DNA of 64,000 nucleotides from Longimicrobiales bacterium. GTDB taxonomy: Bacteria; Gemmatimonadota; Gemmatimonadetes; Longimicrobiales; Gaopeijiaceae. The position numbers and the translations under genes were made by a program. Each line of letters starts with the position of its first letter. The stretch's first letter is position 1. The stretch covers positions 491,348 to 555,347 of the forward strand of contig CBDCKN010000015.1 in the NCBI GenBank assembly GCA_965218295.1. The letters run 5' to 3'. Shown piece after piece: positions 6,643 to 49,029 of this stretch. The notes under the pieces were generated by a model. The model had not been told where the DNA came from. It ran no database searches and saw only the letters and a list, made by a program, of their open reading frames with translations.

Positions 6643-7134
6643 ATGGAGATGCTGAAGGGGCTTTTCATGGCGCGAGTGGACGCGTTCCTCGAGCGCACGG
6701 GAGTGGCGCCGGCGACGCTTGGCCGCCAGGCGGTAGGCGATCCGAACCTGGTGCGTCAGCTACGCCATGGCCGCTCCCCGACGCTCGCGACGGCCGATCA
6801 GCTCCTGGCGTTCATGGAAGGCTTCGACGAGGCCGGTGTGGACCCTGTTTCCTCCCGGAGCGACCGGCTCCGGGATTCATCCCCGAGAGAACGGAGAGGC
6901 AGAGAGATGACGAGAACCATGGTGCAGGAAATGGAGGTGCCGATCCGCATCGTGCGGCTCCCGGCCGTGCAAGCTCGCACGGGGCTCGGGCGGAGCACGA
7001 TCTACGTGCGGCTGGCCGAGGGTTCTTTCCCCAGACCCGTCCAGCTAGGCGCGCGCGCTGTCGGCTGGATCGAGTCGGAGGTGGACGAGTGGATCCGGCA
7101 GCAGATCGCGTTGAGCCGCGGCGAGGCCGAGTGA
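6643..7134 (+). CDS. alpA: AlpA-family regulator/excisionase with N-terminal Cro-like HTH
   Basis: C-terminal IVRLPAVQARTGLGRSTIY...FPRPVQLGARAVGW.ESEV; N-terminal phage Cro-like segment (FLERTGVAPATLGRQAVGDPNLV). Confidence 0.85.
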   Translation: MEMLKGLFMARVDAFLERTGVAPATLGRQAVGDPNLVRQLRHGRSPTLATADQLLAFMEGFDEAGVDPVSSRSDRLRDSSPRERRGREMTRTMVQEMEVPIRIVRLPAVQARTGLGRSTIYVRLAEGSFPRPVQLGARAVGWIESEVDEWIRQQIALSRGEAE

Positions 7135-7169
7135 TCGGCGCATCCCAGCGAGAGACCAAGGAGAAGACG

Positions 7170-7457
7170 ATGCAACCTTTCATAAGGACGGTACGAGCGG
7201 CGGCTTGGGCCGCGCTGTGGATGCTCATGCCCGGCCTGCTGTGGGCGCAGGGGACGAGCCCGTGGGTGGAGGCGGTGAACGAGCTTCAGGCGCAGTTCAC
7301 GGGTCCGATCGCGAGGGGGCTATCGCTGATCGCAATCGTGGTGGGCGGGCTGATGTTCGCGTTCGGCGAGGGCGGGAGCAAGCGCACGCTGGCTGGGATC
7401 ATCTTCGGTCTCGGGATGGCGATGGGCGCGGCGAACTTCCTGGCGTGGCTCTTCTGA
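7170..7457 (+). CDS. virB2: TrbC/VirB2 pilin
   Basis: Signal-like N-terminus, SPW...FTGPIARGLSLIAIVVGGL pilin motif, AAGGAG RBS. Confidence 0.85.
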   Translation: MQPFIRTVRAAAWAALWMLMPGLLWAQGTSPWVEAVNELQAQFTGPIARGLSLIAIVVGGLMFAFGEGGSKRTLAGIIFGLGMAMGAANFLAWLF

Positions 7458-7759
7458 TGAGGGGTCTGAGGCGCTGGGCCGGCTATGCGGCGCTGAACCG
7501 TCCGCTCACGATCCTGGGCGTGGAGCGTAGGGGGTTCCTCCTGAGCGCGACGCTCGGGCTCGCGATGTGGAACGCGATGAACTCCCTGGTGACGGGCGGC
7601 GTCGTGTTCGCGGTGGGCTTTGGGGCCGGATGGCTCGCGGGCCGCAAAGACCCCGACATGCTTGGCGTGCTACGGGCCGGGACGCGCTACCCGTCACGCT
7701 TCGACCTGGGCAAGTGGGCCGAAGAGCCGTGGCATCTCGTGATCCGGAGCGGGCGATGA
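7457..7759 (+). CDS. virB3: VirB3-like T4SS protein
   Basis: ALNRPLTILGVER motif, two hydrophobic segments, KDP motif; TGATG overlap with virB2. Confidence 0.85.
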   Translation: MRGLRRWAGYAALNRPLTILGVERRGFLLSATLGLAMWNAMNSLVTGGVVFAVGFGAGWLAGRKDPDMLGVLRAGTRYPSRFDLGKWAEEPWHLVIRSGR

Positions 7760-10199
7760 GGATCGCCGCGGAGCTCCGGGACCACGAGGCGGCCGGTTCG
7801 CTGGCCGAGGAGCTGCCCTACTGGGCTGGCTCGAGGACGGCCGCACCTGCCTGACCCGCTCGGGCGAGCTGATCGCGGCCGGCCGGCTGGAGCCCGCGGT
7901 GGTGGATGGGCGTTCGCCCGAGCAGATCGACCGGGTGCTCGGCCGCTGGCAGCGGTTGCTCTCGGGTTTGGACGCCGACACGCGCCTCTACTTCTATCTA
8001 CTCCGCCGGCCAAGTCCGCCCGAGGCCGCGGACGACGAGGGCTCCGGCATCGTAGCGGTGTCCCAGCAGAAGCGGAGTGCGTTTCTGGCCGGCCGCGTCC
8101 AGCAGCTCGAGGCCTACCTGGTCTGGTCGCACGATCCCCGTCTACGCACGGTGGCCGACGGGCCCAGAACAGGAAGCGCCTCCCGGCTCATGCAGTGGTG
8201 GCAGCGCCGCCGGGCGAGCGCGCCCACCTACCTCGGTTCCGAGATCGAGGCCGCCGCCGCCCGCTTTCGCGCGACGGTGGACGCGGGCCGGGCCCTCGTG
8301 GAGGAGCACACGCCGATCGAGATGCTCTCGCCCGCCGAAGCTTCGCGGCTTCTCTCCGAGCTCATCAACCGTCCGGGCACGATGTGGGCCGGAGCGACGG
8401 GGAGCGGCATGAACTGGCGGCTCGCGCTTTCGGAGCTCGAGGCGGAGCGCGGTCACCTGCGGCTCGACGGCGAGCCCGTGATCCTCTACTCGCTCCTCTC
8501 TCCGCCCGGCCAAGCCTACGCGAACCTGCTCCGGGACCTCTACTGCCTGGACGCGGCGATGACGGTGTCGCTCGAGTGGCGGGTCTGGGCGGTTGAGGCG
8601 GCCCGGCGCCGGATCCGTGGCGCGCAGCGGCACTACTTCGCGCGCCGTTACTCGATGATGGCCCATGTGCAGGAGACCGAGGGCACGGCCGCCGCGATGG
8701 TCGACTCGGCCGCGGCGACCGAGTCGGACCGGCTGGGCGAGGCGCTGGTCGAGCTGGAAGCGGACGGGGTGAGCTACGGGGAGGCCACGCTGACGGTGGC
8801 CCTCCACGGCGAGCTCGGACGGATCGAGCGGCTGGACGGCGACCTGCGTCGTCTCTTCGCCGCGCACGACGCGAAGGCGATCCGGGAGGGTTACGGCCAG
8901 CTTCCGGCGTGGTTCTCCCGGCTGCCGGCCCAACCGCGTGGGCGGCAGGTACGGAAGGTGTTCGTGTCGGCCGGCGTGGCGGCGTGCCTCGCGCCGCTCT
9001 TCGGTCCGCCCAGGGGGACGCCCCGGAGCCGTCACCTCGGTCGCGAGTCGCTCGCGGTCTTGGAGACCCCGTGGCGCACGGCGTACCACTACGATCTGTT
9101 TGCCGGTGACGTGGGCCACACGTTGATGCTCGGCGCGACCGGCTCGGGCAAGAGCTTCACACTGAACTTCCTCCTGGTCGAGGCGCTCAGGTACGACCCG
9201 CGCGTCCTGATCCTGGATCTGGGCGGCTCCTACCGCTGGCTCACCCGGTTCCTCGGGGGCCGCTACCTGGAGCTGTCGCCCGGCGAGGCGGAGCCGACGC
9301 TCCGGCTGCAGCCGTTCGCGCTCCCGGCGGGCACGCGGACGTTCCAGTTCCTGACGGGCTGGGTGCTACGGCTACTGAAGCTCGGCGGTTGGGAGGCGAG
9401 CGGCGCGGACACGAGCGAGATCCGCTCGCGCATCGAGGACCTCTACGCGTTCGAGCCGGAGCGGCGGACGCTGAGCGTCCTGGCCAGCTCGCTTCCGTCC
9501 GCGACGTGGCCGGCATGGAGCCGTTGGACCCAAGGCGGCGCCTGGGGCGCCTACTTCGACAACCCTGCCGGTGGGGCGCCGGACCTCGAGTTCGCCGACT
9601 GGCAGGTGATCGATCTGGCGGGTGCGGTCGAGCATCCGGATCTCTGCGACGCGGCGCTCTCCTACCTGCTCGAGCGGATGCGGCTCGAGGTGGAGGATCC
9701 GTCCGAGGCGGCGCGGCTGAAGCTGATGGTCGTGGACGAGGCCTGGCGCTACCTGCAGGACCCGGCCGTGCTGAACTACCTGGCCGAAGCGGCGAAGACG
9801 TGGAGGAAGAAGAACGCCGCGCTGATCCTGGCCACGCAGTCCGCCGTGGACGTGACCTCCACGCCGGGCGCTGCGGCGCTGCTCGAGTCGATCCCGACCA
9901 AGCTGTTCCTCGCCAACCCCGAGCTCCCCGACGAGGTCGGCGCGCTGTTCCGGCTGAACGACTCGGAGCTGGCCCAGGTCCGGGGCCTGATCCCCAAACG
10001 CGAGCTCTATCTGCGCCGCCCGGACGGGGCCGCCGTGCTCCGGCTCGACGTCGATCCCCAGAGCTACTGGCTCTACACCTCGTCCGCATTGGACGCCGAG
10101 GAGAGGGCCCGGGCCGTCGAGCGCCACGGGCTCGCCCGCGCGATTGAGGTTCTCGCGAGCCGAGACGATCCCACCCCCACCCCCAACGCAAGGAGCTGA
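7756..10199 (+). pseudogene. virB4: VirB4 ATPase with a 1-nt frameshift near the 5' end
   Basis: Walker A GATGSGKS and Walker B VVDEAW. The N-terminus MRIAAEL...ELPYW from ATG 7756 joins the main frame (WLEDGRTCLTRSGE) only if one base is added at GGG 7823-7825. Confidence 0.85.
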
Positions 10200-10205
10200 C
10201 ACGCC

Positions 10206-11069
10206 ATGCGATCCCCGACTACACCCCTCGTTCTAACCGCCCTTCTCTTGGCTGCCCTCCCGGCCGGGGCCGCCGCGCAGCAGGAGGACGACCAAGCGTT
10301 CCTCCGGGTGCCGGTCCCGGAGGAGGGGGAGGACCGGATCCACCGGCTCCGCACCCGGGTCCGCCACACGACGGTCATCGTGCTCCCCGCCGATGAGAAC
10401 ATCCTGGACTTCGTGGTCGGCGACTCGGAGTACTGGCACCTGACGGGCGCGGCGAACGTCGCGTTCCTGAAGCCTCTCGCTTCGGACGCGGCGACGAATA
10501 TCGCGCTCGTATGCGAGTCGGGGCGGATCTACTCGTTCCTGGTGGCCGAGCACAGCGACGGGCCACCCCATCTGGTCGTCCGCGTAGAGTCCGGAGCAGA
10601 GGCGGCGCGGCTCTCCGGCGGCAGCGGCCGTCCCGCGTTCGTCGCGCGTAGCGAGGTCGCGGCCTACCAACAGATGGCCGCCGAGGCGGCGGCGGCGGCG
10701 CGGAGTGCCCGGGAGGCGGCCGAGGCCGGCATCCTGGAAGCCCGGACTCAGGCCGAAACGGAGATCGAGGAGTTCCGTGCGTGCTATCCGGAGCGTCTCG
10801 CGTTCGAGTACCGGCTCGACGGGGACGCGGCGGAGCGGCCGTTCCTGGTCGAGGCGATGTGGCACGACGGGCAGTTCACCTACCTCCGGTCCCACGCCCA
10901 GGAGTCGCCGGCGCTCTATGAGCTCCGGGACGGCGAGCCGGCGCTCGTCGCTTACGACCTGAGCAAGGACGGCCTCTACATCGCTCGACACGTGTTGGGC
11001 GACGGGTGGCTGCAGATCGGCGACAAGCGGGCCGCTTGGCGGTTCACGCCCAGGGACGGACTCAGATGA
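10206..11069 (+). CDS. virB9: TrbG/VirB9 family protein
   Basis: Signal peptide; VGDS..W, FLKP, TN and WHDGQFTY motifs; operon position. Confidence 0.85.
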   Translation: MRSPTTPLVLTALLLAALPAGAAAQQEDDQAFLRVPVPEEGEDRIHRLRTRVRHTTVIVLPADENILDFVVGDSEYWHLTGAANVAFLKPLASDAATNIALVCESGRIYSFLVAEHSDGPPHLVVRVESGAEAARLSGGSGRPAFVARSEVAAYQQMAAEAAAAARSAREAAEAGILEARTQAETEIEEFRACYPERLAFEYRLDGDAAERPFLVEAMWHDGQFTYLRSHAQESPALYELRDGEPALVAYDLSKDGLYIARHVLGDGWLQIGDKRAAWRFTPRDGLR

Positions 11070-12340
11070 GCCGCTGGAAGCAGTGGGTCCGGCCCCCGGA
11101 AGGTGCGCTGCCTGGCGGCATCGTGACGAAGGCAGGCGTCGTGTTGATCGCCGTGCTCGTCGGTGGACTCCTCTTCTCGTGGGCGATGACGGGTCCCCAG
11201 GAAGCCGACACTCTCGTAGCCCTGCCCGAGGCGCAGGCGGTCGACGACGGAATGGGGAGGTCGCTCCAAGACCGCATTCGGCAAGAGGCCGAGCGGCAGA
11301 CTCTGGAGGCCGCCGCCCGGGCGCGCGTCGAGCTCGAGCTCCGGCAAGCCGCGGCCGCCGAAGAGATGGCCCGGCTCCAGACCGAGTCGGAGGCGCCGAA
11401 CACCGCAGCCTTGATCCCAGGCGTGAGCGCGGCCGAGTCGGAGCTTAGGGAGGCGCTTCGGCTGGAGGAGCTGGAGCGAAGAACCCGCTCGCTCCGCTCC
11501 GTGCCGGTCGCCCACACGTCCAGGACTCCGGACGCCGCGACCCGGCCGTCCGAACCCGACGGTCGAAGCGCCGGCGGTGCGGCCGACGCAGATGTGGCGG
11601 TCCTCGAGAACACGGTCCAAGCGGCTCTCGCCTCCTTCGAGCAGTCGCTCGGGGCGCTCGAGGGCGAGCTGGAAGCGGAGTTGGCGGCCGGGCAGCTTCT
11701 CTCCGGCTCCTCCGGAGCTGCCGCACCGCCGAGCTCTCCTCGCACGCCCGGCACGGTTCGGCCGGTCTCTAGCGTCGCGTCCGCCGACCTGCCGGGTTGG
11801 GAGCGGATCTACGAGGGCTCGTTCCTCGAGGCGGTGCTTCTCACGCAGCTCTCGGGCGACTTCCCCGGACCGGTGCTCGCCACGGTCTCGGTGCCGTTCT
11901 ATTCGACCGATCGCCAGCGGGTCCTGATCCCGCGCGGCGCACGCGTCGTCGGAACAGCCCGGGCCGTCCAGGACCCGGACCAGAGCCGGCTCGCCGTCGC
12001 CTTCCACCGGCTGCTGCTGCCCGACGGCAGCTGGATCGACCTCGAGTTCACCGGCCTGAACCAGGCGGGCGAGGGCGCGCTTCGGGACCAGGTCGACCGC
12101 CACTACTTCAGCACGTTCGCGGCAGCCGGAGCCGTCGGTGTCGTAAGCGGACTCGCCTTGGCCGGCGGTTCGCCGTTCGGCCTGAGGGCGGGCGTCGGCC
12201 AGGGACTCGGCCAGAGCGCGACCTCGGTTCTCGACCGGTTCCTGAACCGGCTACCCACGATCACGATCCGCGCCGGCCATCGCCTGCGCATCTGGTTCAC
12301 CTCCGATGTCCTGGTCCCCAGGCCCCGGACACGGCACTGA
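11066..12340 (+). CDS. virB10: TrbI/VirB10 family protein
   Basis: N-terminal TM; EGSFLEAVL, VLIPRGARVVG and PTITIRAG motifs. Confidence 0.9.
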   Translation: MSRWKQWVRPPEGALPGGIVTKAGVVLIAVLVGGLLFSWAMTGPQEADTLVALPEAQAVDDGMGRSLQDRIRQEAERQTLEAAARARVELELRQAAAAEEMARLQTESEAPNTAALIPGVSAAESELREALRLEELERRTRSLRSVPVAHTSRTPDAATRPSEPDGRSAGGAADADVAVLENTVQAALASFEQSLGALEGELEAELAAGQLLSGSSGAAAPPSSPRTPGTVRPVSSVASADLPGWERIYEGSFLEAVLLTQLSGDFPGPVLATVSVPFYSTDRQRVLIPRGARVVGTARAVQDPDQSRLAVAFHRLLLPDGSWIDLEFTGLNQAGEGALRDQVDRHYFSTFAAAGAVGVVSGLALAGGSPFGLRAGVGQGLGQSATSVLDRFLNRLPTITIRAGHRLRIWFTSDVLVPRPRTRH

Positions 12341-12357
12341 AACGAAAGGAGACTCTC

Positions 12358-13266
12358 ATGCAGATCCGAACCCTTACCACCGTCCTCCTGGTCTCGGTCC
12401 TGATGCTCGCGACCGCAAGTCCGGCCAACGCCCTCTTCGACATCGGCGGCGTGATCCAGCGTGCCCAGATGATCGTGAACCAGGCGACCCAGATCGCGAA
12501 CCAGATCCGCCAGATGCGGACCATGACCCGCCAACTCACCGAGCTCGAGGAGCAGCTCGACTACATGAAAGAGGCCGCGCGGGGCGAGGTGGACGCGCTG
12601 ATCGAACCGTTCGCCGAGCTGTCGGCCGGATCCGTCGGCCTCGTCGGCGACGGCCTCGACTGGGGTTCCGAGTTCACCGGAGCGGCCGGCGAGCTGGTCG
12701 ACGCGGTCCGTGACATGGGGAGCGGAAGCTCGTTCACCGATGTCTGGCGGAGCGCCCAAGGTGTGGCCGACCAGGTGAGCGAGGCGGACATCCTGGGGCT
12801 GTTCCGTAACCACCCGGCCGAGGTGTCGTCGCACGCGGTGGACGACTACCGCCAGGCCCGTGAGGCCGCCGACCGCCAGCGCGTGCTCGACTACGCGATG
12901 ATGGACGCCGCGGCCTCGCTCGCCTCGACCGTCGAGAGCGCGCAGAGCTCGTTCGACGAGCTGACCGCGAACGGCAATCTGTCCAACACGGCACTCCAGC
13001 AGGCGCAGGTCGCGGCCGCCCTGACCCAAGGCCGGATCAACGCCGCCGTGGCGCAGGTGCTCGCCTATCAGGCGGTCGAGCAGGCGAACCGGATGCAGCA
13101 GGCCGAGATCGACCGGCTCGAGCGCCTCGCCGAGTGGAGGGACGCGCGCCTCCGTACGAACGCGATGGCGGATGCGATGCGCACGGCCGCGTTCCAGAAC
13201 CGCGACCGGCTCCGGGAAGGGCTCCTCTTCAAGATCCCGTCGTTCTACATGGGCGGCCAGGCATAG
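12358..13266 (+). CDS. TrbJ/VirB5-like secreted helical protein
   Basis: Signal peptide, QIANQIRQ coiled coil, located before virB6; AAGGAG RBS. Confidence 0.65.
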   Translation: MQIRTLTTVLLVSVLMLATASPANALFDIGGVIQRAQMIVNQATQIANQIRQMRTMTRQLTELEEQLDYMKEAARGEVDALIEPFAELSAGSVGLVGDGLDWGSEFTGAAGELVDAVRDMGSGSSFTDVWRSAQGVADQVSEADILGLFRNHPAEVSSHAVDDYRQAREAADRQRVLDYAMMDAAASLASTVESAQSSFDELTANGNLSNTALQQAQVAAALTQGRINAAVAQVLAYQAVEQANRMQQAEIDRLERLAEWRDARLRTNAMADAMRTAAFQNRDRLREGLLFKIPSFYMGGQA

Positions 13267-13284
13267 GCCCCGGGAGCGACTGTC

Positions 13285-14295
13285 ATGCAACTTCCTCCCC
13301 CCCAGTCGATCGATCCGAACGTCCCGGCCCAGATCCCGGCGGATCAGCTCCAGGACTTCAAGGGGTTCCTGGACGTCGTGCTCGATACGGTGGTCGGCGG
13401 CGCGGCGCCCGACGTGCTGACGCTCGGCCACCAGCTGTGGGGCGGTCTGGCGGCGATCGTCGTCGCGTGGAGCGGCCTCAAGATCGCGTTCAGCGGAACC
13501 TTCGAGCCCTGGTCCCTCGTGCGTGTCGTGCTCGCGGTCGCGATCCCCCGGACGCTCCTCCACTACTACAGCGTCCCGATCCCGGGCGTGGGCTTCACGT
13601 TTCCGGCCATGGTGGCGGCCGGAGGGATCTGGCTCCAGAACCTGTTCATCTCCGATGTCGTGTCGGTTGGCTACACGGAGATGACCGCGCTGGTCCAGGC
13701 GTTCGCCGCACGGCTCGGCGCCGCATGGTCCGGCGGGAGCCTGATGACCGTCGTGACCGAGGGCGTGAGCGTGTTCTTCTCCTCCCTCGTCGCGCTGATG
13801 ATGGGCGTGCCGCTCGTGCTCGGCCTCGTCGCGCTCTTCTGCCTGACCTACGCGCAGGTGATCTGGGCGCAGGTGGCGCTCGCGATCGTGATCCTCTTGG
13901 GCCCGGTGTTCATCCCCTGGCTGCTGTTCGAGCCGCTCGCGTTCCTATTCTGGGGATGGTTCCGCACGCTCATGGTCTACACGCTCTACGGCGTCGTGGC
14001 CGGAGCCATCCTCCGTGTGTTCATGGGCGTCGGCATGGGCTACGTCACCACCTATACCGGCGCCTTGATGGGCACCGGCTCCTCCGACCCGGCCGAGTTA
14101 GGGCTGTGGGTCGTCGTCCTCCTCCCGCTCGTCGTCTCCGGCCTGATGGCCGGCATGAAGGTGGGCGAGCTCGCCGCGATGCTCGTCTCCGGTTCCGGAT
14201 CCGTCGGGTCAGGCATGATGGCGCTCGTGGTCCACGGAGGTGGGCGCCTCAGCGCTGCTGCGAACCCGGCCCGCCCCCCAGTCCCCGGAGGCTGA
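13285..14295 (+). CDS. virB6: TrbL/VirB6 family membrane protein
   Basis: Polytopic; LGPVFIPWLLF..L.FLFWGW motif. Confidence 0.85.
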   Translation: MQLPPPQSIDPNVPAQIPADQLQDFKGFLDVVLDTVVGGAAPDVLTLGHQLWGGLAAIVVAWSGLKIAFSGTFEPWSLVRVVLAVAIPRTLLHYYSVPIPGVGFTFPAMVAAGGIWLQNLFISDVVSVGYTEMTALVQAFAARLGAAWSGGSLMTVVTEGVSVFFSSLVALMMGVPLVLGLVALFCLTYAQVIWAQVALAIVILLGPVFIPWLLFEPLAFLFWGWFRTLMVYTLYGVVAGAILRVFMGVGMGYVTTYTGALMGTGSSDPAELGLWVVVLLPLVVSGLMAGMKVGELAAMLVSGSGSVGSGMMALVVHGGGRLSAAANPARPPVPGG

Positions 14296-14306
14296 AGGAG
14301 ACGTCC

Positions 14307-14975
14307 ATGAACCGAGAACGCGATGCCGGCCGCGAGTACGCGGAGATCTGGGGCGAGACCGTGCAAGCGAACCGAAAGCTCCGGACTCTTGCAATCGTCC
14401 TAGCAGGGGGATGCCTCGCGCTCGCCGTCCTGCTCCTTCGCATCGCGACCGTCGAGCCGCCCCGCCCGATCGTGGTCCGGGTCGACGAGGTCGGCCGCGC
14501 CGAGGCCGTGGCCTACGAGGCCGCAACGGCCCAGGCGGATCCGCTCGATCCCACGACCAAGTACTTCCTCAACCGGTTCATCTCCGACTTCTACTCACGG
14601 CGGCGGGCGACGGTCGAGGAGCACTGGACGCGGAGCCTCCGCTTCCTCTCGACCGAGCTGGCGAACGCCGCGTTCACGAGGGACGGCGCCGAGGTCGCCG
14701 CCATGGCGGCCGGCACCGCCGACACCGAGTTCCAGGTCGAGCAGGTCGTGCTCCGCATCCACCCCGCACCGGAGGCTCCGCACGGCGCGACCGCCGACTT
14801 CGATCTGGTCCACCTCAGGCAGGGGCAGGAGACGCTGAGGGAGCGGTGGTCGATCACGCTCCGGTTCACCTTCCTCACCGTCATCCCCTCCGAGCTCGTC
14901 GTCTACAACCCGATGGGCATCCTTCTCACCTACCTGCAGGCCGACCGTGCCCTGGTCACGGAAGCCCCGCGATGA
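14307..14975 (+). CDS. virB8: VirB8/TrbF family protein
   Basis: TM followed by PIVVRVDEVG; C-terminal NPMGI motif. Confidence 0.85.
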   Translation: MNRERDAGREYAEIWGETVQANRKLRTLAIVLAGGCLALAVLLLRIATVEPPRPIVVRVDEVGRAEAVAYEAATAQADPLDPTTKYFLNRFISDFYSRRRATVEEHWTRSLRFLSTELANAAFTRDGAEVAAMAAGTADTEFQVEQVVLRIHPAPEAPHGATADFDLVHLRQGQETLRERWSITLRFTFLTVIPSELVVYNPMGILLTYLQADRALVTEAPR

Positions 14976-15907
14976 TCGCCCACCTCGCCGGGCGAGAGAG
15001 GGCGCTCGAGCCGTTCGGTTGGACGGGACGCCAGGCCGAGTGGATCGCGCTGGCGTGTCTCCACAGCGGCGTGTTCACCCGCGCCCAGCTCTCGGCCTAT
15101 CTACGGATCGATCGCTGGCAGGCTCTTCGGTTCGTCCGGGCCATGTCGGAGCGAAGGCTGGCAGCCGACGAGACACTGGAAGGCCGGAAAGTCTGCCGGA
15201 TCTGCGGGCGCGGGATCTACCGGGCGCTCGGCGCCGAGGACATCCGCCATCGCCGGACCGCTTCCGATGAAGTGCTCCTGCGGCGCCTGCTCTCGCTCGA
15301 CTACGTGCTCGAGCACACCGACTTGTCGTGGCTCCCGACCGAGCTGGAGAAGGTCGGCGCGTTCCAGGCGCTCGGCATCGAGCGCCGGCTCCTGCCCTCG
15401 CGGCTCTACCGCGGAGCCGCCGGCAACACGCGGCGTTACTTCCCAGTCAAGCTGCCGGTCGCGCTCGAAGCCGAGCGCGCCGTGTTCGTCTACGTCGATC
15501 CCGGACACGATACCACGACGGCGCTCCGCTCGTGGGCCGTGGCGCATCGCGGCCTCTGGCACGCGCTCGAAAACCAAGGCCGATCCATCGAGGTCGTGGC
15601 CGTCGTCCGCACCGTGAGGGAGCTGCAGCGGGCCCTGACGATCCTCGAGAACTGGACCAACACATCTACAGCATCCGGCCCCTCCGCCGCTCCGGAACCC
15701 GACAGTGCGGCCCGCCGCGAGATCGCCCGAATCGAGCAGGCCATCCGCGCCAAGGATGAACGGGTGCTCAAAGAGTATGGCGACCTGCAGGCCTGCCTCA
15801 AGCGGATCGCCGAGCTGAAGGACCTCCACCGATCCTCGAGTCCCGGAACGATGATCCACGGGTTCGCGACATGGCGCTCGAGACGGCTCCCTGGAGGCGG
15901 ATTTTGA
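14972..15907 (+). CDS. Conserved hypothetical protein (wHTH-like N-terminus; candidate replication/relaxation protein)
   Basis: Translationally coupled to virB8. Full paralogue at 51757-52731 and 3' remnant at ~49030-49225. Function inferred only. Confidence 0.75.
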   Translation: MIAHLAGRERALEPFGWTGRQAEWIALACLHSGVFTRAQLSAYLRIDRWQALRFVRAMSERRLAADETLEGRKVCRICGRGIYRALGAEDIRHRRTASDEVLLRRLLSLDYVLEHTDLSWLPTELEKVGAFQALGIERRLLPSRLYRGAAGNTRRYFPVKLPVALEAERAVFVYVDPGHDTTTALRSWAVAHRGLWHALENQGRSIEVVAVVRTVRELQRALTILENWTNTSTASGPSAAPEPDSAARREIARIEQAIRAKDERVLKEYGDLQACLKRIAELKDLHRSSSPGTMIHGFATWRSRRLPGGGF

Positions 15908-15912
15908 ACGCG

Positions 15913-16195
15913 GATCAGCGAGGGCCGGTGCTGATCGGCGCGTGCACATCAGACAACGAGGTGCATGTGCACCGAAACGCCATTTTCATGTGCGCGCCAG
16001 CGCTTCCTTATGTGGCTGGCTGTCTTACAGTTGCGGCACGGCCGGCGGAGCGGCGATGCCGCTCCGGAGCTTTCGGCCGTAGATGGGAGCGACCCCCCCT
16101 TTGGGGATGCCTCGATCGGCATCGGGGAGGGTTGGCATGTGCACACCCATGCCACTCTCCCACGGGGGGTCGCTCCCAGCCATGGATCCCTACGG
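15913..16195 (+). other. Conserved multi-hairpin non-coding element, copy A
   Basis: Stems GATCAGC/GCTGATC, GTGCACAT/ATGTGCAC, ACGGCCG/CGGCCGT and a 14-bp GGGAGCGACCCCCC (16085-16098)/GGGGGGTCGCTCCC (16164-16177) stem enclosing two hairpins. Homologous copies near 49.2 and 51.5 kb. Confidence 0.7.
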
Positions 16196-16417
16196 ACTGC
16201 CTCGGGAAGTTCCATAACACACGTGATGTCAGTTACTTACACATTCAGTGACTTTGCTCGTCCCCCCATTTCATCCACCGTTTTGAATCGGCTGTCGAGA
16301 GCCCTTCGTGGACGTGAACGGACTGTAACTGTTCGGCCAAGCCGTGGGGAGCGTCGTGTTGTCGGATCGTGTGGTGGGGTCTGGTAACGTGATCCGGAAT
16401 GTAGTATCGTCGAGGGC

Positions 16418-18688
16418 ATGGCGATGCGGGACGGCAACGGACATGCGAACGTGGCGCTGGCCGAGGGGCTGGAGGAGCTTTGGCCGGTGCCCGGTTCCGT
16501 GGAGTCGGAGCTTGGGGACTGGCGGTCGCTGTACGAGCGGGAGCGCGAGCGAGCGGAGGCGGCGGTGGCCCGCGCGGAGGAGTTGCGGTGGGCGGAGGTG
16601 CGGGCGCGCTGCGAAGCGGGATCGTGGAAGTGGCGGTGGGAGGCGTCGCGCCGGAAGCTGAGGGCGGTGATCGCGGAGACGCGGGAGGCCCGCCGCGCGG
16701 CGTGGGACGCCCTGGCGTTGCAGCGCGAGGTGGGGCGTCTGCACGGGCTGCTGCGGGAGGCCGGGGTGGACGCGGGGAAGCGCGGCACGGAGATGGCGCT
16801 TCGGATGGAGGTGGCACGGCTTCGCGAGGAGGGTTGGGCGCTGGAGAAGGCGCTCGATGCCCGCGCGGCCGAGGTGCAGAACCTTCACAAGGCCCGCATC
16901 GAAGCGGACGCGGACATCCTGGCGCTGCGGCGGCAGTTGCGCGAGATGCTCGAGATCCACGGCGAACTGTCGAAGCTGGGGGACCAGCGGGACCGGGTCG
17001 AGTCGCTGTCGGAGGAGGTCGGGGCGCTTCGCTGGGCGCTGAAGGTCTCGGAGGCGTCGAAGGGCCGCCTGACGGCGCGGCTGCGGCGTGCGGTCGAGGC
17101 GGGGCGGGCGCGGTCGCCGTCGGCCGCCGACGCGGAGTTGCGCAAGGCCTTGCGCAGATCGCGGCGCCAGAGGGCGACGATCGGCTCGCTGACGCGGGAG
17201 AAGACCCGGCTCGGCAGGAGGATGCGGGCGTCGCGGCGGCGGATCGAGCGCCTCGAGGGCCAACTGGCGAAGCTTCGCGCGTCGCGCACGGTGCTGCCGA
17301 AGGGGCAGTCCGGCGGCGCGTGCGAGAGGCAGGAGCGACCGCGTTCGGGGCGGCGGCGGGGCCAGCAGCCCGGCACGCCGGTCCACGGCCGCACCCCGCG
17401 CCCGGGGCTTGAGGAACGCACCGAGGAGCACAACCCGCCCGCCGATGCGCGGGTGTGCCGGGGTTGCGGGAGCCCGTACGCGGCCAACGGCGCCGAGGAG
17501 TCGGCCCTCGTCGAGATCGAGGTCCGGGCGCACCGGCGGGTGATCCGCCGCCCGCGCTGGCGGCGGACGTGCGGGTGCGCGTCGTCGCCCGCCGAAGTGA
17601 CGGCGCCCCCCGTGCCTCGGCTGTTCGCCCGCACGCCGTACGGGACGAGCGTCTGGTCGCGCTTCCTGTTCGAGCGCTACGCGTGCCTGCGCCCGCTGCA
17701 CCGGGTCTGCGGGTGGCTGTCCGACCAGGGTCTGCCGGTCTCGCCGGGCACGCTGGCGGACAGCGTGCACCGCTTGGCGCCGTTGTTCGAGCCGGTGGGC
17801 GCGGCGATCCTCGCGCACCAGAACGGCTCGGCGCTGCGCCATGCCGACGAGACCAGCTGGCGGGTGCGGGCGCTGCGCGACAGCGACGGATCGGGGTACG
17901 CGTGGCTGTGGATCTCGGTCGGCCGCGGCGCGGCCTACTTCCATGTGGATCCGTCACGCAGCGCCGAGGCGGCCCGGAAGCTGTTCGACGGGGCGCTGTG
18001 CCCGACGGTCCTCGTCTGCGACCGCTACAGCGGCTACAAGAAGCTGGCGCGTCTCCTCGGGGGCAGGGTCACGCTGTCGTTCTGCTGGGCGCACATGCGC
18101 AGGGACTTCATCCGGTGCGCGGCCGGGCACGTCCATCTGACCGGCTGGTGCCGGGAGTGGCTCGGGCGGATCGCCACGGTCTACCGCCTGCACAAGGCGC
18201 GGCTGGAGCTCCACGACCCCGGCCTCGAGCGCCAGAGCCCGGCGTTCGACGCGGCGCACGACGCGCTGAGCGAGGCGCTCGGCGGCATGTTCGCGGCCTC
18301 CGAACGCCAACTCGCCCGCCTGTCGCCAAAGGCGAGGGAGGGAGGGCCGCTGCGCTCGCTCCTCAACCACCGCGAGGGGCTGAGCGTCTTCCTCGACCGG
18401 CCCCGCGTGCCGCTCGACAACAACCTCGCCGAGCGGCTGCTGCGCGGCCCGGCCATCGGGCGGCGCCTGTCGTTCGGCTCCGACAGCGAGTCCGGCGCCC
18501 GGTTCACCGCGCTCATGTACTCGGTGACCGGCACCCTGAGGCTGAACGGCCTCGACGTGCCGCGCTGGCTCGCCGACTGGTTGGCGGCGTGCGCGCGCGG
18601 CGGCGGTCGCCCGCCGGGCGACCTGTCGCCCTGGCTGCCGTGGTCGATGGACGCCGGACGCAGGCGCGAAATGACGGCGTCCGCATGA
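16418..18688 (+). CDS. IS66 transposase (TnpC-like) with long coiled-coil N-terminus
   Basis: CxxC zinc finger, HADET, CDRYSGY, CWAHMRRDF and DNNLAERLLR motifs. Confidence 0.92.
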   Translation: MAMRDGNGHANVALAEGLEELWPVPGSVESELGDWRSLYERERERAEAAVARAEELRWAEVRARCEAGSWKWRWEASRRKLRAVIAETREARRAAWDALALQREVGRLHGLLREAGVDAGKRGTEMALRMEVARLREEGWALEKALDARAAEVQNLHKARIEADADILALRRQLREMLEIHGELSKLGDQRDRVESLSEEVGALRWALKVSEASKGRLTARLRRAVEAGRARSPSAADAELRKALRRSRRQRATIGSLTREKTRLGRRMRASRRRIERLEGQLAKLRASRTVLPKGQSGGACERQERPRSGRRRGQQPGTPVHGRTPRPGLEERTEEHNPPADARVCRGCGSPYAANGAEESALVEIEVRAHRRVIRRPRWRRTCGCASSPAEVTAPPVPRLFARTPYGTSVWSRFLFERYACLRPLHRVCGWLSDQGLPVSPGTLADSVHRLAPLFEPVGAAILAHQNGSALRHADETSWRVRALRDSDGSGYAWLWISVGRGAAYFHVDPSRSAEAARKLFDGALCPTVLVCDRYSGYKKLARLLGGRVTLSFCWAHMRRDFIRCAAGHVHLTGWCREWLGRIATVYRLHKARLELHDPGLERQSPAFDAAHDALSEALGGMFAASERQLARLSPKAREGGPLRSLLNHREGLSVFLDRPRVPLDNNLAERLLRGPAIGRRLSFGSDSESGARFTALMYSVTGTLRLNGLDVPRWLADWLAACARGGGRPPGDLSPWLPWSMDAGRRREMTASA

Positions 18689-19566
18689 GCGAGCGCATCG
18701 AATGCCGCTACCACGGGCGCGACTTCACCGCCGCGGAAATGGCGCTGCTGCGCCGACTGATCGCCGGACCGCCCGCGCTCAACCGCCACGCCCTGTCGAA
18801 GGAGTTCTGCCGGCGCATCGGCTGGTTCAAGCCCGACGGCGGGCTCAAGGACATGATGGCGCGCGTCACCATGCTCGCCATGCACAGCGACGGCCTCATC
18901 GTCCTGCCGCCCCCGAAGTGGAGGCAGAAACGACCCGGCCCCATCGTCTTCGGACAGGACACCGAACCGCCCCTCTTCCCCCCGCCCACGATCCTCGACG
19001 AGGTCCGCCCCCTCGAACTCCGCACCGTCGTCGGCGGCACCCGACAGGGCAGGCTGTGGAACGAGTTCGTCGCGCGCCACCACTATCTCGGCTACAAGAC
19101 CCTCGTCGGCGCCCAGATGCGCTACGCCGTCCACGACCGCAACGGCTGGCCGCTCGCCATACTCGGCTTCAGCACCGCCGCCTGGTCCCTCGCTCCACGC
19201 GACCGCTTCATCGGATGGACCCCGACCCTGCGAAAGAAGAACCTGCCGCTCGTCATCGACAACCCCAGGTTCCTCATCCTGCCCTGGATCCGCATCCCCA
19301 ACCTCGGATCCCACATCCTCGCCCTCGTCCGCCGCCGCCTGCCCCGCGACTGGACCCGCCGCTACAACACCACCCCCGTCCTCATCGAGACCTTCGTCGA
19401 GGTCCCCCGCTTCACCGGCGGCGTCTACAGGGCCTCCGGTTGGATCCGCGTCGGTACCACACGGGGACGAGGGCGCTACGACACCGCCAAGCAGTACGGC
19501 AAGCCCACCAAGGATGTCTGGCTCCGCCCGCTCGCCAAGCACTGGAAGCGCATCCTCAACCGCTGA
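18685..19566 (+). CDS. DUF4338 (DruA-like) domain protein
   Basis: HHYLGY, G.QMRY, RDRFIGW, NPRFLILPW..IPNLGSHIL and YRASGWI.VG.T.GRG motifs; ATGA overlap with the transposase. Confidence 0.85.
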   Translation: MSERIECRYHGRDFTAAEMALLRRLIAGPPALNRHALSKEFCRRIGWFKPDGGLKDMMARVTMLAMHSDGLIVLPPPKWRQKRPGPIVFGQDTEPPLFPPPTILDEVRPLELRTVVGGTRQGRLWNEFVARHHYLGYKTLVGAQMRYAVHDRNGWPLAILGFSTAAWSLAPRDRFIGWTPTLRKKNLPLVIDNPRFLILPWIRIPNLGSHILALVRRRLPRDWTRRYNTTPVLIETFVEVPRFTGGVYRASGWIRVGTTRGRGRYDTAKQYGKPTKDVWLRPLAKHWKRILNR

Positions 19567-20081
19567 GCACCCCCACACACACGATCCGACAACACGACGC
19601 TCCCCACGGCTTGGCCGAACAGTTACGAACGGATGGCCATCGCCTGCGCCCCCGTCCTTCCCGCCCCCTCAGCGGCTTTCAGAGCGGCGATCGGAGGTGC
19701 CCCGGAGGCGCCAGTCGGCCGCGACCCGGGGGGGTTCGGCCCGTTCCGCGGCCGCGGCAGGCCGAGAGGAGGCTCTTGGAGACCGTCAGAGCCGACTTCT
19801 CGGCGCTGGGTGACCCATAGGACCCCGGGATCCAGCGCGGAGCTCCCCTCGACCTTCAGTTTCGGCGGAGCCGAAGATCGGGGATCGACGGCGGCGCAGC
19901 CGACCCGCCCGGATCCTCCAGCCACTCGAGGACGTCCGCGTGCATGAGCGACACGACCGGCGAGGTATCCGAGCGTGGGCGCACGAGTCTGTTTGGTGCA
20001 CGGGAGGGAAGCACGTCTAGCCAGTCCCCGACGGGGGATTCCTTGAGGAACCGGCGCGCAGCCAACTTCCGCCCCCCGTCC

Positions 20082-20630
20082 TCACAGAAACCGCCGAACC
20101 CGGCTCCGATACTCCCGGTAAGCGTCGCCGTACTGCTCCTCCAGCCACAGCTCCTCGGCCAGCGGCGCAACCACGAACACCACCGCTAGGAGAAGGTGCG
20201 TGATCCACAGCAATAGCGAGTTCGCGATCACACTCACGCCCACGAAGCAGACGATGTCACCCAGGTACTGCGGATTCCGCGTGAACCGGTAGGGGCCGGT
20301 GGACACGAACCCGCCCTTCAACCCGCTCGTGTTCTTCCAGCCCACAGTGACCACTCCCCACACGGCCAGCAGGCCGCCGAGCACCACCAGGGGTACCCCA
20401 ATGATGAACCGTAAGGGGCTCTGGAAGACCCAGGAGTTCCAGTACATCAGGAGGAGAAGAACGTTGATCCCGATCACCGCCCAGAAGCCCGCCCAGGTCA
20501 GCAGATGCTGCCAGGAACCACGGCCCGGCGGTGGCCACAATCGCCTATCTGGGACGACGACCGACCAGACGGCTCCCGCCAACTGCGCGATTAGGATGAC
20601 GACGGCGACGCCGAAAAGGATGGTGGACAT
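20082..20630 (-). CDS. Isoprenylcysteine carboxylmethyltransferase/PEMT family membrane protein
   Basis: Multi-TM; GPYRFTRNPQYLG and EE..L...YG..Y..Y motifs. Confidence 0.88.
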   Translation of the reverse strand: MSTILFGVAVVILIAQLAGAVWSVVVPDRRLWPPPGRGSWQHLLTWAGFWAVIGINVLLLLMYWNSWVFQSPLRFIIGVPLVVLGGLLAVWGVVTVGWKNTSGLKGGFVSTGPYRFTRNPQYLGDIVCFVGVSVIANSLLLWITHLLLAVVFVVAPLAEELWLEEQYGDAYREYRSRVRRFL

Positions 20631-20815
20631 GTACGGATACCCCTGGGGCTGTCCCAGGTTGGTGGACAGGTGAGCGTTGAGCCTTCAGGGGATACTTGAC
20701 CTACTCCTCCTACTAGGAGAGCAAGGCTTCCCCCGAAGTGGGGATAAAGGTGCGTTCACGCGGCGGCGTTTCTGCTCGAACCCGGAAGACCTATCCTCGA
20801 CGATGGTCTTGCCAT

Positions 20816-22321
20816 TTACGCACTTCCTCCTGATGACTCAAGCTCCTGCGCAATGGCTTGAAACGCTTCCAATGCAATGTGTAAGTCTTCCACGATCTCG
20901 GCAGCCAGCACCTCAGGCTCGGGCAGGTTCTCGCTGTCCTCCAGTGATTCGTCCCGTAGCCAGAATATGTCGAGGTTTAGCTTGTCCCGCTTTAGCAGTT
21001 CCTCATAGCTGAACGACCGCCACCGGCCCTTCGGATCCTCTTCGCTCCAAATATTCTCGCGCTCGTGCCTCCGCCCAGCCTTGTAGCATTCCACGAAATC
21101 GTCGAGGTCTGCGCGCTGCAACGGCTTCGTCTTTAGCGTGAAATGCTTGTTCGTGCGGAGGTCATAGACCCACAGCCGTTCGGTCCATGCCTGCTCCCGT
21201 GCAGGCTTCCTGTCGAAGAACACCACGTTCGCCTTCACGCCCTGCGCGTAGAACAGGCCTGTTGGGAGGCGGAGCAGCGTGTGCACATCGAACTGCTGAA
21301 GCATGTTCTTACGGACGGTCTCACCCGCACCACCCTCGAACAGGATGTTGTCGGGCATGACGATGGCGCACCGGCCATGGATGCTCAGCAGCGTCTTCAC
21401 ATGCTGAAGGAAGTTGAGCTGCTTGTTCTTCGTAGTGGCCCAGAAGTCCTGGCGCTCGTAGGCGTGAGCCTCACTCTCCAGCCCTCCCGCTTCGTTCACG
21501 ATCTGGATACTGCTCCTCCTCCCAAACGGCGGATTTGTGAGTACCACTGAGAACCGCTCACCAGGGTCGCTCGCGAGGCTGTCAACACCCGAACGGATAG
21601 GGCACGGATCGGCGTCGATCCCGTGCAGGTACAGGTTCATGATCCCAAGGCGAGCGGTCGCAGGGACCAGTTCCCAGCCATGCACAAAGCCTTCGCGGAG
21701 ATGTCGCTTCTGGTCGGGATCCAGTTCCGTGCCGTGTTCTCGGGCGACATATTCGTGGACGGCAAGCAGAAAGCCTCCGGTCCCACACGCAGGGTCGCAA
21801 ACCGTATCATCGGGACGTGGCTGCATCACGTCCACGATGCCCTTGATCAGCTGACGGGGGGTGAAGTACTGACCGGCCCCCTTCGGTGATTCCTGAGCAG
21901 ACTTCGAAAGCAGCCCCTCATAGATGTCGCCCTTTACGTCGGCATGCATCGACATCCAACTCTCTGGATCGATGAGATCAACGATCAGCCTCTTCAAGGT
22001 CGCTGGGTTCTGAATCTCCTGTCGTGCTTTCTTGAAGATTTCTCCGAGCATCCCCGATTGCGTTCCGAGTTCCCGTAGGATGTGTCGGTAGTGCGACTCT
22101 AGCTCCTCGCCGTCGCGTGTGAGTAGGCTCGGCCAGTCCATGTCTTCCGGAACGATGGGGTCTCGGCTCCACGGCGGCTGGGTCTGCTCATGGGCCATCT
22201 TCAGGAAGAGCAGGAAAGTGATCTGCTCGGTGTAGGCCATATAGGAGAGCCCGTCGTCTCTCAAGACGTGCGCGAAGCTCCAGGCTTTGTTGACGACCTG
22301 TTGGGTGTGGTTGTTCGGCAT
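20816..22321 (-). CDS. hsdM: Type I R-M methyltransferase subunit
   Basis: GQYFTPR, DPACGTGG and TNPPF motifs. Confidence 0.95.
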   Translation of the reverse strand: MPNNHTQQVVNKAWSFAHVLRDDGLSYMAYTEQITFLLFLKMAHEQTQPPWSRDPIVPEDMDWPSLLTRDGEELESHYRHILRELGTQSGMLGEIFKKARQEIQNPATLKRLIVDLIDPESWMSMHADVKGDIYEGLLSKSAQESPKGAGQYFTPRQLIKGIVDVMQPRPDDTVCDPACGTGGFLLAVHEYVAREHGTELDPDQKRHLREGFVHGWELVPATARLGIMNLYLHGIDADPCPIRSGVDSLASDPGERFSVVLTNPPFGRRSSIQIVNEAGGLESEAHAYERQDFWATTKNKQLNFLQHVKTLLSIHGRCAIVMPDNILFEGGAGETVRKNMLQQFDVHTLLRLPTGLFYAQGVKANVVFFDRKPAREQAWTERLWVYDLRTNKHFTLKTKPLQRADLDDFVECYKAGRRHERENIWSEEDPKGRWRSFSYEELLKRDKLNLDIFWLRDESLEDSENLPEPEVLAAEIVEDLHIALEAFQAIAQELESSGGSA

Positions 22322-23847
22322 TAGAGGACTTGCTTCTTGCGTTTGTGTATCGGCCTCGCGGGGCGGCGCTTTCTCCGATTGCCTTCCTGGTCGGCTCGAA
22401 TGCGCTCAAGGAGGACGGAAGCGGGCTCGTCGGTAGGATCTTGTGGGACGAGGTGGCCCGCGAAGGCGAGTTTGAGGATGGATTGGCGGAGGCGGGCGGA
22501 AGTAGTGCGGCGCGATTTCACCGCCTCTAGTGATCGCTGCCAAACGTCCATCAGCTCCTGCACTAGATCCAATACGATTTTCTGCTCAGAAGCAGGTGGC
22601 AAAGGAAGGAGAAGCGGCAGAATGTCTTGATTGTTGATTTGGGGCACATTCGATCCGTCCGCTAGCACTGCAAGGTCGACGGACTGAAACCACCACCACA
22701 GCCATGTCCCAACGTCACCCACCGGGCTCATCGCCATGATGTTCAGATCGAGGCAGGACGAGACAGCGAGCTCCCTCTTCTTGTTGGTTGCTATGGCTCC
22801 CCCTCGCTTGGGGAATACAATTGTACCGGCAGGGAAGACCCTTAGCCCAAGAGCCTTTGCTTTGTTCATAGAAAGATAGGCCCTCGAGTGTTGCATGGCC
22901 CTCTCGTTCCCGGGCAGGTTCATATCGCCCACCTTGTACCACGGAACCTCACCTGTTGGTGTGACGTTGGCGGCCGCGCCTTTCGGCGTTTGGCCGCTAG
23001 AGATATTTGACACCTGATCCACCGTTGCCCAACACCATCCCTGCGGCAGTTCCGGCAGTTCGCCCTCATCCGGCCCTAGCGGTTCCTTGTACTTGTCCCT
23101 CCAGTTCCTGGGTGGTTTCCGGTCCCTGGCGGCAAACTTGGCAAGCTGCTCTTCCTCCCAAAGCTGTCTCCGCTCAACCAGAATCCGCTGAAGGAGCTCC
23201 GCGCCCGTCTCGTCGGGCGGATTCTTCCGTCTCCACTCCTCGGTCAGCCTCCCCTCGACCGCTGCCTTGAGCACTGAGGCTCGGTAGCGCTTCAGCTTTG
23301 CCTGGGCGCGCTCGAGTGCCGCAACGCCCGCATCCAGTTCGGAGAACAGTTCATCAAGCTTCGCGACGATACGGTGCTGCTCGGGGAGGGGGGCGAGAGG
23401 GATAGGAAACTCTCGTACGACCTTGCCGGATACGGCTTTGAATGTGGTGCCTGTTCCCTTGGTATCTAGTTCATCCGCATAGCGACGGAGTATGTACAGC
23501 ATGTAGCTGAGGCTTAGGCTGTTCTCGGGTCGTATCGCGGCCAAGCCGCGTCCTATGCAACACTTGTATGGTGCGAGATTGGTAGGTCCAACAGGCGCTC
23601 TGACAGACAGTAGGATATCGTCAGCAAGAGCTATTTTGTTTGGTTGAGTGCACCACACACGCGCTTCTGGATATAGGTTGCCGAACTCTGCTTTTCCCTG
23701 AAAAAAAGGCAACCCCACCCCGTCGTGGTTGTAAGTCACAGACGGCGGCGATTGTCCCATATTGACGAGAGCGACATCGGCAATACTAGCCGAGCACCAC
23801 CCCGCTGGTAGCTCAGAGCGGTCTGTAACGAGTTGATCATTGCTCAC
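22321..23847 (-). CDS. hsdS: Type I R-M specificity subunit
   Basis: Two TRDs with PLAPLPEQ/PLPPASEQ conserved regions; PQDPTDEPASVLLERI tail. Confidence 0.93.
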   Translation of the reverse strand: MSNDQLVTDRSELPAGWCSASIADVALVNMGQSPPSVTYNHDGVGLPFFQGKAEFGNLYPEARVWCTQPNKIALADDILLSVRAPVGPTNLAPYKCCIGRGLAAIRPENSLSLSYMLYILRRYADELDTKGTGTTFKAVSGKVVREFPIPLAPLPEQHRIVAKLDELFSELDAGVAALERAQAKLKRYRASVLKAAVEGRLTEEWRRKNPPDETGAELLQRILVERRQLWEEEQLAKFAARDRKPPRNWRDKYKEPLGPDEGELPELPQGWCWATVDQVSNISSGQTPKGAAANVTPTGEVPWYKVGDMNLPGNERAMQHSRAYLSMNKAKALGLRVFPAGTIVFPKRGGAIATNKKRELAVSSCLDLNIMAMSPVGDVGTWLWWWFQSVDLAVLADGSNVPQINNQDILPLLLPLPPASEQKIVLDLVQELMDVWQRSLEAVKSRRTTSARLRQSILKLAFAGHLVPQDPTDEPASVLLERIRADQEGNRRKRRPARPIHKRKKQVL

Positions 23848-26639: not shown

Positions 26640-26832
26640 GGGAATGCATTCTCTTTCGGGGTTGTTTCAGGAGCACAAGGATTCTTCGAGAGTCGGGTGA
26701 TGGGGCTGTTCCTGAGACGGACGAAGGGGGCGGGGAGTTGGGCCCCTCGAGGAGAAGCTGACGAATCTCGAGACGGCCACGACGGCGGCCGGCCTTGAGG
26801 TGACGACGCTGCTTCGCGAGCAAGTGGCTGGA

Positions 26833-27120
26833 TCACGCCGCCACAAAACTCTCCACCGCGATCTCCTCGGCGCGGCCGCGGGCCTGCCAGAGATCGTAGG
26901 CCATCTGCATCCCCAGCCAGGTCTCGGGCGTCGAGCCGAAGGCCTTAGACAGCCGTATCGCCATCTCTACCGAAACCCCCGTGCGCTCGTTCACCAACTC
27001 CGAAAGCGCCTGCCGGGTAACGCCCAACCCTTCGGCAGCACGGGTCACGGTCAGACCCAGGGGTTCGAGACATTGCCGCTTCACGATACCGCCCGGATGC
27101 GGAGGGTTGTGCATCGCCAT
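26833..27120 (-). CDS. higA: HigA antitoxin
   Basis: MHNPPHPG...MAIRLSKAFGSTPETWL.MQ signature. Confidence 0.93.
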   Translation of the reverse strand: MAMHNPPHPGGIVKRQCLEPLGLTVTRAAEGLGVTRQALSELVNERTGVSVEMAIRLSKAFGSTPETWLGMQMAYDLWQARGRAEEIAVESFVAA

Positions 27121-27133
27121 GATCAGCTCCTCC

Positions 27134-27870: not shown

Positions 27871-27960
27871 CGCACTTAAGGTGCGTAAGCCAGCCCACGC
27901 AATGTTGAACATTGCGCTCTGGCGAGGGGATGCTGCGCCCCCCTTCGAACCCCCGGCTTC
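27871..27960 (-). other. ColE1-type oriT (nic CTGG^CTTA)
   Basis: TAAGCCAG at 27886-27893 flanked by hairpins CGCACttaagGTGCG and CGCAATGTtgaACATTGCG, followed by GCTGCGCCCC as in the ColE1/pBR322 bom region; directly upstream of mobC. Confidence 0.75.
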
Positions 27961-49025: not shown

Positions 49026-49029
49026 TGGC

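Follow-up and report, generated by a model that had tools for sequence, protein, structure and literature searches.

A putative transfer origin accompanied by two winged-helix proteins in integrative and conjugative elements of Longimicrobiales and other bacteria

The described systems closest to the one considered here are those of the MOBC group, which corresponds to the Pfam family PF13814 (Replic_Relax) (PMC5357655). TraX of pAD1 and MobC of CloDF13, both MOBC proteins, are described as combining an N-terminal winged helix with a restriction-nuclease-like domain (PMC12857230, PMC6736028), a DEE triad has been reported for the group (PMC6736028), and the binding repeats of TraX are placed 70-120 bp from nic (PMC12857230). 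Published accounts also include repeats lying away from a conserved site and an association with VirD4 (PMC12857230, PMC6736028, PMC5357655). Further likenesses are found in the pWBG749 family, where the accessory protein SmpO is reported to set the oriT subtype and specificity to switch against phylogeny, and in the staphylococcal oriT mimics, several subtypes of which are carried by hitch-hikers (PMC8136818). Likewise, the streptococcal IME_oriT and IME_traG are described as integrase elements that enter the oriT and virD4 of a host integrative and conjugative element (ICE) (PMC7563843, PMC5357655), while MobI of the IncA/C plasmids and SXT/R391 is an element-specific transfer factor encoded beside an oriT that bears inverted and direct repeats (PMC5587640).

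The locus described here was analysed in a stretch of 64,000 nucleotides (the window) from a Longimicrobiales bacterium (GCA_965218295.1, contig CBDCKN010000015.1, positions 491,348 to 555,347). Its intact relatives are ICEs with the order virB2-virB8, X, element, virD4, virB11, ardC, Y, integrase, in which X and Y are two winged-helix proteins and the element is a repeat-bearing sequence of approximately 290 bases. We propose, with a probability of about one half, that the element is an oriT, with X determining its specificity and Y nicking it; that it is an oriT, X and Y roles aside, we consider quite probable. The X-element system was found nowhere described in a literature search at the level of search results.

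Gene order of the ICE and its interruption in the window

An alpA-type regulator and a mating-pair operon, recognized through Pfam/NCBIfam matches, gene calls and clusters, occupy positions 6643..14975 of the forward strand in the order alpA-virB2-virB3-virB4-virB9-virB10-(virB5 position)-virB6-virB8, and the operon is closed by protein X (copy 1; 311 amino acids; 14972..15907, +). The gene in the virB5 position (12358-13266) encodes a secreted-type protein of 302 amino acids without a Pfam match. Element copy 1, a putative oriT, follows X (15908..16195, +). An earlier reading of the window from the sequence alone (the sequence-only reading) had reported the X gene, or its 3′ end, together with a structure at three places, and all were found as described. 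A 3′ remnant of X covering residues 243-311, that is the last ~68 codons (49016..49225, +; 78% identity to copy 1), precedes element copy 2 (49226..49520, +), while X copy 3 (324 amino acids; 51757..52731, −), which is 57% identical to copy 1, precedes element copy 3 (51466..51756, −). The count of three copies holds for the window, but the genome contains 22 profile matches to the element, 14 of them near full length.

The ICE of the window is interrupted repeatedly. A 20.4-kb integrative element (16196..36650) is inserted in the terminal hairpin of element copy 1, which is cut at 16195, and is flanked by CCCTACGG at 16188 and 36643. Element copy 1 ends at the first of these repeats (16188-16195); the second is followed by the missing GAAGG and then by the 5′ part of virD4 (~180 codons; 36667..37206, +). 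The uninterrupted hairpin-virD4 junction was found in a related locus (L002) and also as a loose end in run X16. In a further locus (L001), the same hairpin site is filled by a related element, the end of which is 76% identical to window positions 16196-16323, and the site is therefore a specific integrase target. The 20.4-kb insert carries a tyrosine integrase (35284-36405, −), IS66, a DruA-like gene and a type I RM system. Its IS66 transposase and the subsequent DruA-domain gene (16424-19566) form a pair that recurs several times in the genome.

The 5′ part of virD4 runs up to CTTCTGCCAC (37197-37206), and from there a second integrative element, with a tyrosine integrase at 37389..38573 (+), extends beyond the window. 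Element copies 2 and 3 lie inside this second insertion, facing each other around an HNH-domain cargo gene (49971..50987, −). What looks by eye like the frameshifted end of a former integrase gene converges on element copy 3 (~51340-51440, +). A reverse transcriptase encoded at 55114-56994 (−) reaches no family at cut-off, with weak matches to group II intron and DRT3a/5/4 models, and is cargo of the second element, possibly with a role in defence. In this genome, the other pieces of virD4, together with virB11, ardC and Y, are located on contig C12 (G000 C12:242870-196940), which starts at the same CTTCTGCCAC as the virD4 break. No overlap between contigs C15 and C12 was found; the shared 10-base repeat leads us to infer that the pieces on C12 and in the window belong to the same ICE. 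The arrangement is that of a nested ("Russian-doll") ICE, in which the oriT hairpin holds a single element and virD4 no fewer than three, its breaks lying near nt 541, 728 and 766. Since a MOBP-encoding element splits element copy 1 and virD4 is disrupted, the ICE has probably lost its capacity for self-transmission.

Matches to X were obtained from Longimicrobiales/Gemmatimonadota and Acidobacteriota assemblies and from metagenomes, for which an association with sponges is taken from run labels and otherwise presumed. A total of 2,434 clusters, formed at 50% identity, are related to X, while in a phylum sample of 301 genomes X is present in 35 and Y in 31, restricted to two families. Forty further X loci were picked from the better-assembled genomes among the matches, with 17 kb fetched for each (one, L119, repeats L010). 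X is found at the end of the mating-pair operon in 25/40 loci, of which 24 continue with the element, virD4, virB11, a small gene, ardC, Y and another small gene, nearly all ending in an excisionase and an integrase. Conserved ICE genes without a Pfam match include one for an acidic protein of 76 amino acids before ardC (L002:18429-18662) and one for a membrane protein of 104 amino acids after Y (L007:16429-16743). An element occurs at most 340 nt from the X stop codon in 39 of the 40 loci. The proposal that X is always followed by the element nevertheless goes too far, since six divergent X genes were found to have no element (L071, L072, L083, L086, L088 and L092). Y is located directly before X in L079, L080, L083, L086, L088 and L092.

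The sequence-only reading had also placed X in the slot before virD4, which is accurate for the relatives and, in the window, only once the 20.4-kb insertion is discounted, and had considered the T4SS operon to lack a relaxase. Representatives of the conserved ICE-block genes indeed have no relaxase domain in Pfam, but the window does encode MobC (27930-28370) and a MOBP relaxase (28360-29880). Both lie inside the 20.4-kb insert, such that the only classical relaxase of the window belongs to the intruder, and it was rejected as the ICE's own relaxase since this insertion is missing from intact relatives. In a direct screen of the new loci MOBP/MobC were present in two, both times inside insertions. 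The genome contains at least eight long MOBP relaxase copies, which form a separate mobilisable-element family alongside.

Anatomy and covariation of the element

The three window copies of the element have folding z-scores of -5.5, -4.5 and -2.3 against shuffles. All stem arms quoted in the sequence-only reading are present, namely GATCAGC (15913)/GCTGATC (15930) and GTGCACAT (15942)/ATGTGCAC (15965) in copy 1, GATCGGC (49231)/GCCGATC (49248) in copy 2, GCGTGCAT (51698)/ATGCACGC (51722) in copy 3, and the closing arms GGGAGCGACCCC...GGGGTCGCTCCC in all three. The element comprises a near-invariant 11-bp inverted repeat (copy 1: 16085-16096/16166-16177; copy 2: 49403-49414/49483-49494; copy 3: 51572-51583/51496-51507), a terminal hairpin (51476-51485 in copy 3) and four copies of a variable box of 7-9 bases, one inverted and three direct. 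In copy 1 this box B is found at 15942-15949 (inverted), 15965-15972, 15988-15995 and 16137-16144, and the second stem named in the sequence-only reading consists of two such boxes facing each other. The terminal hairpin further contains GGGAAGG ~11 nt before the virD4 start, likely the virD4 ribosome site.

Covariation was evaluated on 57 element copies of <93% identity, being the 60 that remained after de-duplication minus three truncated or very divergent ones. Across three helices (22 pairs), 90.8% of positions are paired and 110 both-sides changes are observed, compared to 35.6 in shuffled controls (0/500 reach 110) and at most 24 when the helices are slid. The suggestion that the stems are preserved by compensatory change is thus significant in this broader alignment for three helices, but the GATCAGC stem and the inner hairpins of a supposed three-way junction are not family-wide, RNAalifold recovering consensus pairs in two places only, the 11-bp closing repeat and the terminal hairpin. 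The boxes change in concert, with a within-element identity of 0.63-0.77 versus 0.45-0.54 when shuffled (0/2000 shuffles in each of the six pairs, those of direct repeats among them). Much of the covariation hence reflects the joint change of repeats of one box, direct repeats included, and the alternative of a new ncRNA is not supported.

Other properties of the element were also compared with those of an RNA. Among 87 in-stem mismatches on the sense strand, five are G-T and 18 A-C (expected ratio 1.25), so that no G-U excess is apparent, and folding is equally good on the two strands (z -5.1 vs -5.3). The window yielded no Rfam match at the gathering score, the best weak match having an E of 0.24, far below the cut-off. 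On the bottom strand, the loop of the terminal hairpin is GNA in 35/57 copies and GNNA in 9/57. GNA mini-hairpins are stable in DNA, and these loops suggest a single-stranded DNA hairpin on this strand; a literature search on such mini-hairpins found no paper. To judge from its sequence, the element looks like DNA rather than RNA. It shares several traits with oriT sites, as it is intergenic, lies beside transfer genes, contains inverted and direct repeats and is common to mobilisable elements. Its layout parallels those of the TraX site, with binding repeats set apart from nic (PMC12857230), and of SmpO and the oriT mimics (PMC8136818). The earlier suggestion of an oriT is supported by this synteny and by the protein folds.

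Proteins X and Y and the helix-box code

No family of Pfam or NCBIfam is matched by either long copy of X, PF13814 is assigned in 0/107 members of the X family and has no match over the cut-off in the whole genome, and sequence comparison of X with solved structures returned weak, unrelated matches only. X likewise lacks a relaxase family match and a conserved H-x-H, and its fold is unlike that of an HUH relaxase. In the predicted structure (pLDDT 84.5), copy 1 is modelled with a winged helix at residues ~15-90, a recognition helix IDRWQALRF at 46-54 (CHHEKVRRA in copy 3) and a restriction-nuclease-like second domain at ~97-230, followed by a helical tail. The winged helix (residues 1-88) has MarR-type structural matches (Z 8.4 and 8.3). 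Residues 97-306 match SdaI (Z 7.5, rmsd 3.7, 118 residues) and NucS (Z 7.0, rmsd 3.1, 103 residues), with Z-scores below 8 that may reflect a common arrangement. Foldseek searches with the X model, a check proposed in the sequence-only reading, returned nothing from the PDB at E<=0.001, but gave phage G gp146 as the best viral match (E 8e-4; TM 0.41 over the whole chain), a protein which itself matches PF13814 at E 4e-25. The anticipated winged helix plus nuclease-like fold and the resemblance to Replic_Relax are thus supported by structural matches.

Y is the second Replic_Relax-like protein of the intact ICEs. Its model matches the same phage proteins better than that of X (E 2e-6 and 9e-6, the latter gp146), and residues H144, D145, D220, E238, Y244 and K252 are kept in 44/44 rows as an H-D, a P-D, an E, a Y and a K, forming a fuller nuclease motif than that of X, although the motif reads E-V-A-S and the third acid of the DEE triad is absent. 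No match to PF13814 was found in 7/7 Y proteins. A VIA search with Y gave winged-helix matches only, the second domain being barely probed, and the comparison of X and Y profiles was weak and confined to the winged helix (probability 9 and 32). Neither X nor Y aligned significantly with gp146 in hhalign. Given that sequence profiles detect neither link, the tie of X and Y to Replic_Relax is one of resemblance, not membership.

Among 37 copies of X, D110 is present in 36, E124 in 31 and D176 in 33, while D110, E124, K160 and D/E176 are kept in 33/33 ICE copies; on these conserved residues, X may be catalytic. The pattern D110-x13-E124-x-E126 fits the MOBC triad in its spacing. In X a conserved P-D is missing and, with the register set by eye, Y-x-D stands where gp146 has E-x-D. 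K160 is retained in 25/25 ICE copies versus 2/15 small-element copies (L101-L136), with several routes of loss, and X copy 3 of the window has Gln at this position. In L014, L021 and L022 an integrase element interrupts X near codon 160. ArdC-X fusions (P0266, P0270, P0313) and one Y-X fusion (P0334 in the same set) also occur, some of which may be read-through artefacts. From its fuller motif and better structural match, Y is a better candidate nickase than X.

The box type tracks X residues 46-54, the predicted recognition helix. Helix HPEQVRR is paired with box TTCAC, HHEKV with TGCAC, HHERARR with TGCGCA, HRHTARR with GGACA/GTACA, HRGTARR with GGTGCA, and DRW/DRF with TGTGC. The partial correlation between helix 46-54 and box B, given residues 96-305, is 0.50 (n=37; 0/2000 permutations); it peaks at residues 40-57 and is close to zero across the nuclease-like domain. 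On a tree of residues 96-305, sister rows switch helix and box jointly (L008/L013, L003/L004 and L035/L040+L054). A correlation with box B is seen for residues 244-297 of the C-terminal tail as well (partial r as high as 0.29), and mosaic inheritance thus contributes to the signal. For box A, no part of X correlates in sliding windows (partial r <=0.16). When box type was predicted for 39 new loci, the nearest helix gave the correct answer in 37 and the nearest middle domain already in 34, and the out-of-sample signal is therefore mostly kinship with a modest gain; below 85% identity, the helix is correct in 15/17 cases against 12/17 for the middle domain. When the recognition helices were compared in 33 ICEs carrying both genes, the X helix was less conserved than whole X (0.51 vs 0.64) and the Y helix more conserved than whole Y (0.90 vs 0.72), a contrast consistent with the variable boxes being read by X and the invariant repeat by Y. 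The X helix and the box likely represent a lock-and-key code by which mobile elements are chosen for transfer.

Small elements, the transfer model and its alternatives

Fifteen of the forty loci are small elements carrying X and usually an integrase, without mating-pair genes or Y within 17 kb; virD4 is present in three of them. The combination of X, virD4 and integrase in the absence of Y was observed in L055, L059, L060, L125, L130 and L131. It is common for small elements to hold a further element, the second or third, without an X of its own, and the box types of facing pairs differ in 14/15 cases, four of which are the same element in several assemblies. In the window, the orphan copy 2 shares its box type (ATGTGCAC) with copy 1 of the host ICE, while copy 3 has its own (ATGCAC/ATTCAC). 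Staphylococcal oriT mimics present the same picture (PMC8136818).

In the model in which X addresses and Y nicks the oriT, X bound to box B would recruit Y and/or the coupling protein VirD4, and Y, with its nearly invariant recognition helix, would read and cut in or beside the invariant 11-bp repeat. The strand present in single-stranded form would be the bottom one, with its GNA-loop terminal hairpin. Equipped with an X and an origin of their own, and with extra origins of other box types, small integrase elements would hitch-hike on a helper ICE. The observations underlying this model are the gene order, the fold resemblance, the concerted boxes, the co-variation of box and helix, and the lack of Y at small elements.

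X itself may instead be the relaxase, one of the options named in the sequence-only reading, a diverged MOBC-like protein binding box B and nicking through a rearranged acidic site while Y has another role. This would suit its TraX-like layout of winged helix and nuclease domain, the well-kept D110, E124 and D176, the ArdC-X fusions, which would fit a protein travelling with the DNA, and the X-element-virD4-integrase elements without Y, which resemble IMEs with a MobC relaxase (PMC5357655). X, however, has no conserved PD Asp, its strand position corresponding to the gp146 Glu holds Tyr/Phe/His (register by eye), and D110, E124 and E126 are all on helices in the model; K160, moreover, survives in only two of the 15 small-element copies, and Y, encoded on the other contig in this genome, has the fuller motif and the better structural match. 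We regard this second reading of the oriT as the strongest alternative, though rather unlikely. In offering repeated boxes to a winged helix, the element is reminiscent of iteron origins, and X could be a replication initiator acting on an origin of iterons and a hairpin to copy the excised circle. Relaxase and replication roles are reported to overlap in such proteins (PMC5714925), and small elements do retain X and the element without transfer genes. The fixed position between virB8 and virD4 nonetheless speaks against this reading, extra non-cognate elements suit the borrowing of helpers and not self-replication, and X has no match in a plasmid collection, which together render an origin of replication improbable.

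The element may also be thought of as a structured RNA or leader controlling virD4, with X a transcription regulator on operator boxes. The covariation is real, the GGGAAGG motif could be a sequestered ribosome site, and the helix of boxes B1 and B2 includes 20 G-U cells, but the Rfam search, the mismatch counts and the equal folding of both strands speak against RNA, and the element persists without a downstream gene and in facing pairs; this explanation seems to us highly improbable. The enclosure of differing cargo by facing pairs, and the insertion of an integrase element in the terminal hairpin, could alternatively mark the elements as recombination sites that bracket cargo cassettes and exchange them for the neighbouring integrases. 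Such a role is very improbable, as the ICE operon has a single copy, which goes with X rather than with an integrase, facing copies are mostly of differing type, and the hairpin is destroyed by the insertion, for which an 8-bp core is used.

The X/Y system most likely works like MOBC conjugation, as a putative rather than an established member of that group. It differs from MOBC in that neither X nor Y reaches PF13814, in that each ICE encodes a pair of such proteins and not a single one, in lacking a canonical DEE triad at the expected place, and in the hypervariable recognition helix of X. SmpO is a small ribbon-helix-helix protein that works with an HUH relaxase, whereas X is a protein of 311 amino acids with a winged-helix/nuclease fold, and the hitch-hikers observed here often encode an X of their own. 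The streptococcal IMEs occur in other hosts and with a host relaxase of another class (MOBT), and the oriT-targeting element of the window carries MOBP. MobI is associated with MOBH and an AT-rich oriT upstream of mobI (PMC5587640), while the site described here is GC-rich and downstream of X.

A further-reaching extension of the model, which we put forward tentatively and at somewhat less than even odds, is that a duplicated MOBC-like ancestor gave rise to a two-protein relaxosome, in which Y kept the nuclease and reads the invariant site, whereas X turned into an address reader that can be reprogrammed and follows a simple helix-to-box code, with small elements collecting arrays of differently coded origins for several helpers. 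If true, this would represent a relaxase class that is new and escapes current profiles, and its protein-DNA code would be predictable. ICEs of this kind, though common, would be scored as relaxase-less secretion systems under current profiles. They would provide a second test case of how transfer is started by non-HUH (MOBC-type) proteins, for which no covalent link is known, and their natural series of helix and box pairs makes oriT specificity directly testable. X, the element and Y would account for the movement of DNA among uncultured Gemmatimonadota and Acidobacteriota associated with sponges.
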